From the NCBI RefSeq assembly GCF_011045215.1, contig NZ_CP049201.1: a stretch of 64,000 nucleotides of DNA. The stretch is one strand, 5' to 3'. Below, one piece after another: positions 18,450 to 20,885 of this stretch (its first letter is position 1; each line of letters starts with the position of its first letter). Both the position numbers and the translations under genes were made by a program. The DNA comes from Escherichia coli (GTDB lineage Bacteria; Pseudomonadota; Gammaproteobacteria; Enterobacterales; Enterobacteriaceae). Under the pieces are notes generated by a model that did not search any database, was not told the origin of the DNA, and worked only from the letters and a program-made list of their open reading frames with translations.

Positions 18450-20885
18450 ATGAGCACTGATAAAGAAGAATTTGCATTATATTGTGAAGCAAAAAATGAC
18501 AAAGTCAGAAAACGCCTTGGAATTAAAGGTGGTTTTTACTGGACTACAGCAAAAAAATTATCTGTTGCCATCTCCCGCTGCATTACCGCAATGGATGACA
18601 ACGATTATGATGAAGACGACTTTAAAAAACCCGTCCGCGTCCATTTACCCGTTGTGAATGACCTTCCACCTGAAGGCGTGTTTGATACTGAATTCTGTAA
18701 CCGTTACGAAAAAGGCGGGGAAGATGGCATCACAATGGTATTTATCGCGCCCTCACCCTCTGCGCAGGACAAACCAGCCAACATTGACAATACCAACGTC
18801 AACGGCGAAGACATGACTGAGATTGAGGAGAACATGCTCCTGCCGGTTTCAGGTCAGATTCTGCCTGTTCGATGGCTGGCACAGCACGGCAGCAAAAAAC
18901 CGATCACACACGTTTCGCGGGACGAACTGCGCGCATTACATAACGCACAGGATGAAAAACTTCCCGCCGTTACCGCGCTGGCTATCTCAAATAAAGCAGC
19001 GCAACTCGAACCGCTGGAGATTCGCGATCTCCACAAACTGGTGCGAGACACTGACAAAGTTTTCCCCGCCCCCGTAAATTCGGACCTGGGACTGATAACC
19101 TCTTTTATCGAAGCATACCTAGACGCCGACTACACCGATCGCGGTCTGCTGACAAAAGAGTGGATGAAAGGAAATCGTGTTTCGCGTATCACCCGTACGG
19201 CTTCCGGTGCAAATGCCGGTGGCGGGAACAAAACCGATCGCAATCCGAATTTAGTACACACCTTCGATACGCTGGATGTGGAGATTGCAACAGCCACACT
19301 TCCGATGGATTTTAATATTTATGAAATTCCGGGCAGCGTTTATCGTCGCGCAAAAGAAATCGTCCTGAAAAGAGAAAGTCCGTTCAAAGAATGGTCCGCA
19401 GCACTTCGCGCAACCCCGGGTATTCTGGATTATTCCCGCGCCGCTATTTTTGCACTTATCCGGAGCGCTCACCCTGAGTTTTATCACTACCCGGGACGCC
19501 TTCAGGGGTATATCAACGCCCACTTAACGGAGACTGATCACGAGAACCCCAGCAAGGAAACTCTCACTGCTGCACGACATACACCGGAAAAAGACATCCT
19601 GGAAGAAGTTAACCGCGAACTGGCTGCTGAACGCGAAACAGAAGAAGAAAAAAATAATGAGGAAAAATCACAACCGTCTGACGCAATGGCAGATGAACAG
19701 GCAACGACTGAAGCAATGGGACAGGATACAACTGAATATCGCCAGGACACACAATCGCTGGATACTCAGGCACAGATAAATCCGGTTAATCAGGTAAAAG
19801 TTACCGCTGACGAAGTAAACAAAATTATGCAGGCAGCCAATATCAACCAGCCTGATGCCGACAAAATACTGGCAGTCCATCGCGGTGAATTCGTTGACGG
19901 AATTAGCGACCCGAATGATCCGAAATGGGTTAAGGGGATTGAAACCCGCGATTCTGTGAACCAGAACCAGCCCGAATCGGAACAAAACAGCCAAAATGCG
20001 TTACAAAACGAGCCAGAAACGAAACAGCCTGAACCAGAAGAGCAACAAGAACCGGAAAAAGTCTGCACCGCCTGCGGTCAGACCGGCGGCGGCAACTGTC
20101 CTGACTGTGGCGCGGTGATGGGCGACGCAACATACCAGGAAACATTCGATGAAAAAAATCAGGCTGAAGTTCAGGAAGATGATCCGGAGGAAATGGAAGG
20201 CGCTGAACATCCGAACAATGAGAATGCTGGTAACGATCAGTATCACGCCAGCGATAGTGAAACTGGCGAGGCGACAGATCCCTTAATTAATGTGAACGGT
20301 CATCACGAAATCACATCCACCAGCAGTACGTGTGACCATCTAATGATCGACCTTGAAACCATGGGAAAAAATCCTGATGCCCCGATTATCTCAATAGGTG
20401 CAATATTTTTCGATCCGCAAACCGGAGATATGGGACCGGAATTTAGTAAGACTATAGATCTGGAAACAGCTGGCGGAGTCATTGATCGTGACACCATTAA
20501 ATGGTGGCTTAAGCAATCACGCGAGGCGCAATCTGCCATTCTGACCGATGAAATCCCGTTAGATGATGCACTGTTGCAATTGCGGGAATTTATCGACGAA
20601 AACTCCGGCGAATTTTTTGTTCGTGTCTGGGGAAATGGAGCCAGCTTCGACAACGTAATTTTACGCCGTTCATATGAACGGCAGGGGATCCCCTGCCCGT
20701 GGCGTTACTACAACGATCGCGATGTACGCACAATTCTTGAACTGGGAAAAGCCATAGACTTCGATGCCAGAACGGCTATTCCATTCGAAGGCGTACCCCA
20801 CAATGCGCTGGACGATGCCCGTCACCAGGCAAAACAAGTTTCAGCTATCTGGCAAAACCTGATCCCGAGTCAGGCTGATTTTTAA
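18450..20885 (+). CDS. large phage exonuclease-like protein (C-terminal DnaQ/DEDDh-like 3'-5' exonuclease, acidic linker, zinc ribbon)
   Basis: 811 aa; C-terminus LMIDLETMG...WGNGASFDN...HNALDDARH fits DEDDh motifs; [16 protein letters not shown] zinc ribbon; E/Q-rich low-complexity centre. Confidence 0.7.
   Translation: [811 protein letters not shown]

Follow-up and report, generated by a model that had tools for sequence, protein, structure and literature searches.

The 811-aa open reading frame preceding the excisionase gene of an Escherichia coli prophage integrated at ompW encodes a chimeric exonuclease, composed of a RecE-type N-terminal region and a C-terminal DexA-like domain of the DEDDh class. 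We have very little doubt about this architecture or about the predicted 3′–5′ polarity of the nuclease. The best overall explanation, which we consider probable, is that it is an annealase-independent, modular early prophage protein that would trim 3′ DNA ends. All the positions indicated below refer to the window, i.e., the whole stretch of 64,000 nt that was analyzed (accession no. NZ_CP049201.1), and the features discussed are summarized in Table 1.

The ORF list and the translation indicated that the gene is real and intact, with an ATG start codon. This same start is annotated in RefSeq for a copy with 98.7% identity, whose CDS is named “exonuclease,” and coincides with that proposed in an earlier reading of this DNA done without database searches (the sequence-only reading). 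The RefSeq pipeline labels the gene as “exonuclease” or “3′-5′ exonuclease.” A consensus promoter scan did not reveal any separate promoter that stood out, the number of sites being no higher than in shuffled sequence. The ORF is under purifying selection in all its folded parts: among 70 distinct full-length sequences, the mean dN/dS was 0.21 for the whole gene, with values of 0.13–0.19 in the folded parts versus 0.35–0.69 in the linkers. Likewise, the ORF was intact in 74 out of 80 loci and decayed in the other six; some other copies are split or interrupted by IS elements. This is a very common prophage gene of E. coli, and DNA coding for the DEDDh domain was found in 4,047 of 5,426 complete genomes (around three quarters), O157:H7 having as many as seven copies. 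Additionally, the full-length gene is present in four vB_Eco phage records, and Tritos, a functional phage, encodes a YdfE-type variant.

Table 1. Location of the exonuclease gene, its parts and its neighbors in the window.
Feature	Positions	Strand	Basis or remarks
212-aa protein, phrog_2151	16103–16741	+	Tested as candidate annealase
DicF-like small RNA, same operon, upstream	17733–17782	+	Rfam RF00039
dicB (cell-division inhibitor), upstream	17984–18172	+	Pfam DicB, E = 1e-25
ydfD-like gene (DUF1482), immediately upstream of the exonuclease gene	18169–18372	+	Pfam DUF1482, E = 2.7e-24
Shine-Dalgarno GAGG, 7 nt before the ATG	18439–18442	+	Read from sequence
Whole gene, 811-aa chimeric exonuclease	18450–20885	+	ORF, translation
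N-terminal domain 1, small alpha/beta (aa 1–100)	18450–18749	+	
Span homologous to K-12 RecE residues 50–591 (aa 58–613), non-catalytic	18621–20288	+	BLASTP
N-terminal domain 2, helical (aa 121–245)	18810–19184	+	AlphaFold2 model
Glycine-rich loop (aa 246–268), includes a 16-residue sequence	19185–19253	+	Conservation
N-terminal domain 3, helical (aa 269–375)	19254–19574	+	AlphaFold2 model
Conserved 20-residue motif (aa 478–497)	19881–19940	+	In K-12 RecE and ST131 variant
Q/N/E-rich low-complexity stretch (aa 501–535)	19950–20054	+	Translation
Zinc ribbon, 15 residues, CxxC-x7-CxxC (C539, C542, C550, C553)	20064–20108	+	Translation
Acidic linker (aa 566–625), between zinc ribbon and nuclease	20145–20324	+	RecE homology ends inside, at around aa 613
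DEDDh 3′–5′ exonuclease domain, DexA/Rv2179c family (aa 630–801)	20337–20852	+	Pfam PF16473
Excisionase, immediately downstream	20950–21198	+	Pfam Exc; order as in RefSeq annotations
Lambda-type integrase	21176–22306	+	Pfam Arm-DNA-bind_1, Phage_integrase
ompW, adjoins the prophage end	22352–22990	−	Annotated homologous locus arranged alike

BLASTP comparisons revealed that the RecE-homologous span is 56% identical to K-12 RecE over 564 columns, and tblastn of RecE_N against the window produced a match at positions 18,621–20,285. The NCBIfam model PRK09709 aligned aa 1–613 with model positions 1–602 of 877, scoring 887 bits, which is below the curated equivalog cut-off of 1,269, and Pfam Exonuc_VIII (PF06630) matched aa 57–189 (E = 1.6e-27). 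The N-terminal ca. 400 residues, left unassigned by the sequence-only reading, can thus be assigned, by Pfam and BLASTP, to the homolog of the ca. 590 non-catalytic residues of RecE. Homology does not reach the nuclease: Pfam DUF3799 (PDDEXK) had no match in the 811-aa protein, whereas it matches K-12 RecE at 615–850; BLASTP produced no alignment past RecE residue 591; tblastn of the C-terminal part of RecE on the window retrieved only matches with E ≥ 0.9, and DNA similarity to K-12 recE stops at nucleotide 1,838 of the gene. Both the BLASTP and the DNA comparisons place the nuclease swap point at the RecE domain boundary.

Sequence variation was not uniform along the N-terminal region (dN/dS values from 70 sequences). 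The glycine-rich loop is the most conserved stretch of the protein (dN/dS 0.03, identity 0.99), and is kept both in K-12 RecE and in a consensus derived from 63 distant relatives; in the AlphaFold2 model, its pLDDT falls under 50 at residues 254–256 and averages 54 across residues 251–260. It is flanked by helical domain 2 (dN/dS 0.14) and by domain 3, which is common to the YdfE-type variant, the alignment with the 823-aa exonuclease from ST131 starting at aa 270. The 20-residue motif is embedded in the variable, low-complexity sequence that links the N-terminal domains to the zinc ribbon, and occurs in 28 of the 86 long proteins examined, with both nuclease types; the block around it (aa 446–500) has a dN/dS of 0.13. 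The Q/N/E-rich stretch (dN/dS 0.35) is present as described in the sequence-only reading, as is the zinc ribbon, although with a spacing of seven residues between the cysteine pairs instead of the ten indicated there. The ribbon cysteines are 97–100% conserved (70 sequences), and an equivalent ribbon is found at residue 517 of K-12 RecE; the acidic linker that follows has a dN/dS of 0.69.

A structure search using the confident predicted model did not find any detectable fold relative of the N-terminal region, and the model has no annealase fold, contrary to the idea of a cryptic annealase in this half of the protein. The N-terminal region of RecE has no known function according to a review (PMC11611040). 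In a collection of 1.8 billion representative proteins, many diverged lineages were seen to combine this same N-terminal region with a C-terminus of the RecE type or of the DEDDh type, and the fusion to DEDDh recurs where the N-terminal regions are only 24–60% identical. Proteins containing this region and neither nuclease showed no further Pfam domains, and some of them may be truncated.

The C-terminal DEDDh 3′–5′ exonuclease predicted by the sequence-only reading was corroborated by a match to Pfam PF16473 (Rv2179c-like; aa 630–801, E = 3.5e-66), with a score of 222.7 bits against a gathering threshold of 27 and covering profile positions 2–177 of 177. The predicted catalytic residues, D634, E636, D734, H784, and D789, occupy columns that are invariant when the domain is aligned with T4 DexA and with stand-alone relatives, and all five are 97–100% conserved among the 70 distinct full-length sequences, from which we estimated a dN/dS of 0.19 for the domain. 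The structure of T4 DexA (8KEL) was matched with an E-value of 2.7e-6, and no other solved relative was detectable by sequence; Rv2179c was not recovered from the PDB at E ≤ 0.01, either by sequence or by profile.

The host element is a lambdoid prophage of the Rac/Qin type (“PPompW”), where the exonuclease gene is the last gene of the dicF-dicB-ydfD operon before xis-int, downstream of a DicA-like repressor gene. The DicF-like RNA scored 45.4 bits (E = 2.3e-8), slightly below the gathering score of 48 for its Rfam family, and its region aligns with the dicF regions from K-12 and Tritos. Genes dicB and ydfD-like were each linked to the exonuclease in 77 of the 80 loci. The corresponding gene order in Rac is recE-recT-ralR-rcbA-xis-int, whereas here the exonuclease gene is directly followed by xis-int; in Salmonella prophages, this slot immediately preceding xis-int is taken by stand-alone relatives of 183–190 aa. 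The dicB operon of the K-12 Qin prophage is silent, or repressed, in lysogens and, if operon control here follows that of Qin, the exonuclease would be repressed in the lysogen.

Comparison with known proteins underlines the mixed nature of the gene product. It shares with RecE (exodeoxyribonuclease VIII) from the K-12 Rac prophage the glycine-rich loop, the 20-residue motif, the zinc ribbon and an acidic tail, as well as the place of its gene within the early-left operon, the two prophages being related, but it lacks the PD-(D/E)XK 5′–3′ nuclease domain (RecE 606–866; DUF3799), and there are no recT, ralR or rcbA genes downstream. With T4 DexA (exonuclease A; PDB 8KEL/8KEN) it shares the DEDDh fold family and the five catalytic residues, but identity is only ca. 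26–28% and DexA is a stand-alone protein of 227 aa, from a lytic phage and with extra loops. The stand-alone exonucleases of enterobacterial prophages (183–190 aa, including EcD and gene 34 from epsilon34) are 55–71% identical to aa 626–811 and their genes are also immediately before xis-int, but they have no N-terminal region. The YdfE-type “3′-5′ exonuclease” of 823 aa (ST131, PPompW prophages, Tritos) shows the same dicF-dicB-ydfD-exonuclease-xis-int organization and 62% identity from aa 270 to the end, comprising domain 3, the motif, the zinc ribbon and DEDDh, whereas its first ca. 250 residues are unrelated and do not match Exonuc_VIII; K-12 ydfE, in Qin, is a truncated remnant of this type, with 98% identity to the N-terminus of the variant. 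Finally, Rv2179c (RNase AS) from Mycobacterium tuberculosis is the founder of PF16473, the family matched by the C-terminal domain, but it is an RNA enzyme and too distant for recovery from the PDB.

Phage exonuclease/annealase pairs use a 5′–3′ nuclease of the PD-(D/E)XK type, such as lambda Exo or the C-terminal domain of RecE. As judged from its sequence and context, the 811-aa protein has DEDDh, and not PD-(D/E)XK, as its sole nuclease domain and has no adjacent annealase. Pfam and PHROGs searches with every ORF of appreciable size in the prophage portion of the window found no annealase, and the best tblastn match to RecT over the whole window had an E-value of 2.7. Among 80 related viral loci, tblastn with RecT, Bet and Erf was negative in all, and none contained homologs of lambda Exo or of the C-terminal part of RecE; an annealase is likewise absent from four annotated E. 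coli prophages and phage Tritos. Absence of an annealase is, hence, the rule for this gene. The sequence-only reading was right in seeing no Bet/RecT/Erf-like protein among the neighbors, but it regarded this as unusual for a recombination exonuclease, and this premise does not hold: both the recombination PD-(D/E)XK domain and recT are missing, with a nuclease of opposite predicted polarity in their place. Nor did we find the RecE-type 5′–3′ nuclease and RecT match that were contemplated there as the contrary outcome, the homology to RecE being limited to its non-nuclease part. With a RecE front and a DexA-like 3′–5′ nuclease replacing that of RecE, the protein does not, therefore, represent a recombination exonuclease deprived of its annealing partner. 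A partner hidden in the N-terminal half, in the 212-aa protein or in another neighbor is extremely improbable, and this possibility is largely refuted by our results. The gene certainly sits in the recE slot, several neighbors are without assigned function and the structure of the 212-aa protein is poorly modeled; however, the fold and predicted polarity of the nuclease are wrong for such a pair, and the annealase searches summarized above were negative both in the loci and in the window. The 212-aa protein, proposed previously for testing as a cryptic annealase, gave no annealase signal in domain and profile searches (no match with Pfam, PADLOC or PDB profiles); its homologs occur only in Escherichia and Salmonella and, because it is present in only 34 of the 80 loci, it is not an obligate partner. 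Equally improbable, and already refuted by the selection analysis, is that the gene is a functionless relic resulting from a chance fusion during prophage decay. Many copies do reside in defective prophages, split and IS-interrupted copies exist, and K-12 ydfE is a truncated remnant of a sister variant, but low dN/dS values in every folded part, the high proportion of intact ORFs, the conservation of catalytic and zinc-binding residues, the recurrence of the fusion with very diverged N-terminal regions and its presence in complete phage genome records all argue against this.

Other alternatives concern the substrate and the beneficiary of the activity. The protein could be a prophage-borne anti-phage nuclease (“HREX”-type) degrading, from their 3′ ends, incoming DNAs that are modified (5-hydroxymethylcytosine, as in T-even phages) or foreign and linear; the RecE-type region would then direct the nuclease to DNA ends, and the lysogen would be protected. 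Its gene is at the int-proximal end of the prophage, beside dicB, and DicB is reported to be protective against some phages. Against this, the gene lies behind a DicA-like repressor gene in an early operon that is silent in K-12 Qin lysogens, it holds the slot of recET in Rac, and PADLOC did not match any model. The main argument for defense comes from the stand-alone DexA homolog EcD from E. coli, which was reported by Kang et al. (2025; PMC12153337) to digest T4 DNA but not unmodified DNA and, when plasmid-borne, to confer on E. coli protection against T4, pointing to defense rather than to phage DNA metabolism; moreover, a full-length relative of our gene (WP_000102132.1, 89% nucleotide identity, locus L010) was already included in the list of bacterial DexA homologs of that work (Table S3). 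Nevertheless, this evidence derives from the plasmid expression of a different, stand-alone protein, and a residue used in that work to define the defense form differs. The tetramer Asp of DexA (D90), which is Ala in EcD (A78) and in the aligned stand-alone forms from Salmonella, Citrobacter and Klebsiella, is kept here as D706. The residues reported for 5hmC recognition in DexA, W152 and D169, align with Tyr754 and Ala768, although Tyr754 stays aromatic, Asp770 is two residues past Ala768 and the alignment of this loop is uncertain. None of the 13 stand-alone matches whose sequences were inspected starts with MIDTET, as would be expected for EcD, which was compared through its published residues. 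We therefore see defense as rather unlikely, if deserving consideration. Less likely still is that the protein trims the 3′ ends of RNA, be it host or phage transcripts, small RNAs or the genomes of RNA phages. RNA could be the substrate because PF16473 is named for the 3′–5′ exoribonuclease Rv2179c, and a regulatory RNA, DicF, is encoded in the same operon. Additionally, defense against RNA phages has been reported for DEDDh exonucleases that are encoded by prophages and carry auxiliary domains (2026 preprint; PMC13344964), but its authors describe the sequences of these exonuclease genes as clearly distinct from other defense-associated DEDDh domains, and they took into account only blast hits of less than 500 aa. 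Also contrary to an RNA substrate, T4 DexA, the sole solved relative detected by sequence, is a DNA exonuclease, Rv2179c was not recovered, and the partner region is common to RecE, a DNA enzyme.

We thus favor an early prophage protein in which ca. 610 RecE-type residues are joined to a DEDDh domain that replaces both the PD-(D/E)XK nuclease of RecE and recT. Like T4 DexA acting on DNA, the enzyme would use DEDDh two-metal catalysis to remove nucleotides from 3′-OH ends, and it would not be half of a single-strand-annealing pair. Its RecE-type region may function as a targeting, docking or oligomerization module through which the nuclease would reach its substrate; we infer this from the conservation of the region and its pairing with two different nucleases. 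The most likely substrates are DNA ends, which would be formed when the operon is expressed upon infection or induction. DexA, a 3′–5′ DNA exonuclease, takes part in the scavenging of host DNA and, during intron homing, in the repair of double-strand breaks (PMC12153337). The trimming of 3′ ends may similarly serve phage DNA metabolism, be it in the processing of ends, in recombination aided by host functions or in the scavenging of nucleotides; such a role, as opposed to defense or RNA roles, is a tentative choice, to which we give somewhat less than an even chance.

We did not find any paper dealing with the RecE-N::DEDDh fusion as such, its previous record being the full-length relative in the 2025 list of bacterial DexA homologs (PMC12153337). 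Several phage records name the gene as “exodeoxyribonuclease VIII” or “ds DNA exonuclease,” but the RecET-like function implied by these names is impossible because there is neither a RecE nuclease domain nor an adjacent RecT; names based on RecE are thus misleading for this gene, and their correction would be useful. Around 600 residues of the protein are shared with the N-terminal region of RecE, and its nuclease domain is encoded in about three quarters of the complete E. coli genomes. In recombineering, full-length RecE and its nuclease domain do not behave alike (PMC11611040), and understanding the N-terminal region would also explain this difference. As a more speculative possibility, which we deem unlikely, this region, with its docking-like 20-residue motif, could be a portable delivery module to which phages attach nucleases of opposite polarity, either PD-(D/E)XK with RecT or DEDDh alone. 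If this were true, the DEDDh version would represent an annealase-independent activity at DNA ends present in most E. coli genomes, for instance the destruction of 3′ tails on incoming or competing DNAs, or a new way of processing ends.

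The 811-codon ORF, confirmed as real in the ORF list and by its translation, starts with an ATG preceded at 7 nt by a GAGG ribosome-binding site; a 98.7% identical copy from E. coli RM11911, annotated by RefSeq as 'exonuclease', has the identical start, and the chromosomal part of the window is itself E. coli (99.4% identity). The C-terminal DEDDh domain proposed in the sequence-only reading is present (Pfam Rv2179c-like, aa 630-801, E=3.5e-66), as is the low-complexity stretch, rich in Q, N and E (aa 501-535). The four cysteines of the predicted zinc ribbon (C539, C542, C550, C553) were also found, spaced as CxxC-x7-CxxC and not with the x10 originally given, and a second acidic stretch (aa 566-625) separates the ribbon from the nuclease. 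The N-terminal half, left unassigned in that reading, can be assigned: Pfam family Exonuc_VIII matches aa 57-189, and blastp aligned aa 58-613 with residues 50-591 of K-12 RecE (56% identity), a span that takes in the low-complexity stretch as well as the zinc ribbon and acidic tail. Likewise, positions 1-602 of the 877 in the NCBIfam exodeoxyribonuclease VIII model align with aa 1-613, with a total score (887) below the curated cut-off (1269). By blastp, nothing in the exonuclease aligns with the RecE nuclease domain; Pfam detects DUF3799 (PDDEXK-like) at 615-850 in K-12 RecE and no such match in the window protein. The Exonuc_VIII match, with a RecE alignment that stops before the nuclease domain, indicates that, as judged from its sequence, this protein is a chimera of the non-catalytic front part of RecE and another nuclease, which takes over at the RecE domain boundary.

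The only solved relative of the C-terminal part found by sequence was T4 DexA (PDB 8KEL/8KEN, E=2.7e-6), and the catalytic residues D634, E636, D734, H784 and D789 do not vary when the domain is aligned with DexA and with six enterobacterial relatives of the stand-alone type. Proteins of this type, 183-190 aa long, are frequent in Salmonella, Klebsiella, Citrobacter, Enterobacter and E. coli, and five of those aligned are 59-71% identical to aa 626-811. In Salmonella prophages they directly precede xis-int, the same slot that the window exonuclease occupies.

We also examined 80 IMG/VR loci, taken with flanks of up to 10 kb, that contain full-length relatives of the exonuclease (79-99% identity); in 74 of them the ORF runs uninterrupted for 780 aa or more. 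Among 70 distinct sequences, mean dN/dS was 0.13-0.19 for every folded domain, the motif block and the zinc ribbon, as against 0.35-0.69 for the linkers (a pairwise check was also made), while the catalytic and zinc-binding residues were 97-100% conserved. The fusion of the RecE-type N-terminal region to a DEDDh domain thus appears functional by every sequence test available, and the selection data exclude a functionless relic. Among representatives of 1.8 billion protein clusters, some two dozen lineages join this N-terminal region to a RecE-type nuclease and approximately 17 join it to a DEDDh domain, the N-termini of the latter being only 24-60% identical to that of the window protein; other proteins with this region, some of which may be truncated, lack both nucleases and gave no additional Pfam match. 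Judging from this distribution, the fusion is not a one-off.

The N-terminal domain of RecE was stated to have no known function in a 2023 review (PMC11611040). The best-conserved stretch of the exonuclease lies in this region, in a glycine-rich loop (aa 246-268, dN/dS 0.03) that K-12 RecE and distant relatives also retain; we recognized no known motif in it, and AlphaFold2 modeled part of the loop with low confidence despite its conservation. A 20-residue motif of docking-like appearance (aa 478-497), within the variable low-complexity stretch upstream of the zinc ribbon, occurs in 28 of the 86 long proteins examined, with one or the other nuclease type, and is shared by RecE, while the zinc ribbon is limited to an E. 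coli-like subset (9/86). In some relatives the N-terminal helical module is repeated two or three times in tandem, and in six (P0128, P0132, P0134, P0140, P0149, and P0168) the summed coverage exceeds the 400-residue query.

Features of the window related to the exonuclease and its prophage
Feature	Position	Strand	Remarks
Lambdoid prophage	1 to ~22306		lysis, regulatory and early part; integrated beside ompW
N6/N4 DNA methyltransferase gene	2191-3237	-	prophage-borne; between regulatory and lysis genes
336-aa ORF	3903-4913	+	TTG start; opposite strand to neighbors, between Q antiterminator and DNA methylase genes
406-aa ORF	12204-13424	-	replication-gene position; adjoins DnaC-like ATPase gene
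186-aa ORF	13531-14091	-	replication-gene position; adjoins DnaC-like ATPase gene
cI/DicA-like repressor gene	14842-15231		early-left operon downstream of it
212-aa ORF	16103-16741	+	phrog_2151
Interval from 212-aa gene to DicF-like RNA	16742-17700	+	~1 kb; no convincing gene on this strand
106-aa ORF	17219-17539	-	weak match to phrog_1244 (family of unknown function)
DicF-like small RNA	17733-17782	+	diverged; upstream of dicB; 45.4 bits, just below the Rfam gathering score of 48
STnc100-like match	17784-18003	+	over dicB leader; sub-threshold
Exonuclease gene	18450-20885	+	811 codons
Glycine-rich loop	19185-19253	+	exonuclease aa 246-268
20-residue motif	19881-19940	+	exonuclease aa 478-497

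The prophage part of the window encodes an endolysin, a holin, a DNA methylase, Q, RusA, a DUF968 protein, a DnaC-like ATPase and YdaS/YdaT-like proteins. Its early-left operon runs from a ydfA-like DUF1391 gene through three small ORFs, the gene for the 212-aa protein, a DicF-like RNA, dicB, ydfD and the exonuclease gene to xis and int, an arrangement familiar as the dicB operon of the Qin prophage in K-12. The corresponding stretch of Rac reads recE-recT-ralR-rcbA-xis-int. Both the DicF-like RNA and the STnc100-like match were missed by a scan at gathering thresholds. The 336-aa ORF, which may be an accessory gene, and the 406-aa and 186-aa ORFs had no match in Pfam or PADLOC.

The absence of an annealase among the neighboring genes, which the sequence-only reading considered unusual for a recombination exonuclease, was borne out: the whole 64-kb window contains no RecT-like sequence (best tblastn match, E=2.7), and neither Pfam nor PHROGs assigned an annealase family to any sizeable prophage ORF. 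The 212-aa protein, considered as a possible cryptic annealase, showed no sign of being one: profile and fold searches returned nothing meaningful. It has no family assignment, a poor model (pLDDT 56.6) and only close relatives, from Escherichia and Salmonella, and is present in just 34/80 IMG/VR loci. By tblastn, none of these 80 loci contains RecT, lambda Bet, P22 Erf, lambda Exo, Gam, Abc2 or the RecE nuclease domain, and 77 of them carry dicB and ydfD. Four annotated E. coli prophages, which occupy three attachment sites, and the complete genome record of phage Tritos show the same gene order, again with no annealase. Therefore, in this sample (the 80 viral loci plus a few annotated ones), the lack of an annealase is the normal state for this exonuclease gene and no peculiarity of the window.

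A sister variant occupies ompW in ST131, where an 823-aa '3'-5' exonuclease' is 62% identical to the window protein from aa 270 onward but has an unrelated N-terminus. The K-12 pseudogene ydfE, which follows ydfD in Qin, matches the first 257 residues of this protein at 98% identity; ydfE (18079-18999 in our Qin locus) is thus what is left of the front end, truncated and interrupted by IS2, of an 823-aa DEDDh exonuclease (4643-7114 in the ST131 locus) that is intact in ST131 and phage Tritos and whose N-terminus is unrelated to RecE.

DNA coding for the DEDDh domain is present, at 80% coverage or more, in 4047 of 5426 complete E. coli genomes, in up to seven copies per genome, and 1273 genomes contain the full-length gene with the N-terminus seen in the window. 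RefSeq pipeline names include 'exonuclease', '3'-5' exonuclease' and '3'-5' exoribonuclease domain-containing protein', PHROGs covers the protein with phrog_2082 and phrog_20376, and records of EHEC 'PPompW' prophages use 'putative exonuclease'. Several phage records (ON470612.1, ON470619.1, ON470583.1, ON470580.1, and OV696610.1) call the gene 'exodeoxyribonuclease VIII' or 'ds DNA exonuclease', names that are misleading because the protein lacks the RecE nuclease domain. A full-length relative, WP_000102132.1, is among the 'bacterial DexA homologues' of Kang et al. (2025; PMC12153337). The family has thus been catalogued before; our literature search found no paper describing the fusion as such or testing it.

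The protein combines a chimeric architecture with an intact active site, selection on all its folded parts and a fixed operon position. Its C-terminal domain would, like T4 DexA acting on DNA, use a two-metal DEDDh mechanism to remove nucleotides from 3' ends; the known roles of DexA are scavenging of host DNA and 3' end resection in double-strand-break repair during intron homing (PMC12153337). The RecE-type region, which is conserved alongside either of two nucleases, could serve as a targeting, docking or oligomerization module. We tentatively favor a role in processing the phage's own DNA ends on induction or infection, independently of any annealase, because complete phage genomes carry the gene and because its place in the early-left operon is the slot for recombination and DNA metabolism.

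The main alternative is that the exonuclease defends the lysogen, as EcD, a stand-alone E. coli relative, reportedly digests T4 DNA and protects cells (Kang et al., PMC12153337). However, three points speak against extending this to the window exonuclease. Of the residues by which Kang et al. define the defense form, it keeps Asp706, where EcD has Ala, and, in a loop of uncertain alignment, DexA W152 pairs with Tyr754, likewise aromatic, and D169 with Ala768, which has Asp770 two residues further on. PADLOC has no model that matches the exonuclease, and its operon is preceded by a DicA-like repressor gene; if controlled as in K-12 Qin, this operon would be silent in lysogens. The substrate may also be RNA, as the Pfam family of the DEDDh domain is named for an RNase, although DexA, its solved relative, acts on DNA. 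With respect to the 'recombination exonuclease' of the sequence-only reading, the protein can be equated neither with RecE nor with the exonuclease member of a recombination pair, since both the RecE nuclease domain and an annealase are absent, and the missing annealase therefore needs no special explanation. Thus, with small corrections, the original observation is confirmed and its interpretation only partly supported: the exonuclease gene is a prophage gene of an ordinary kind, very widespread and catalogued already.
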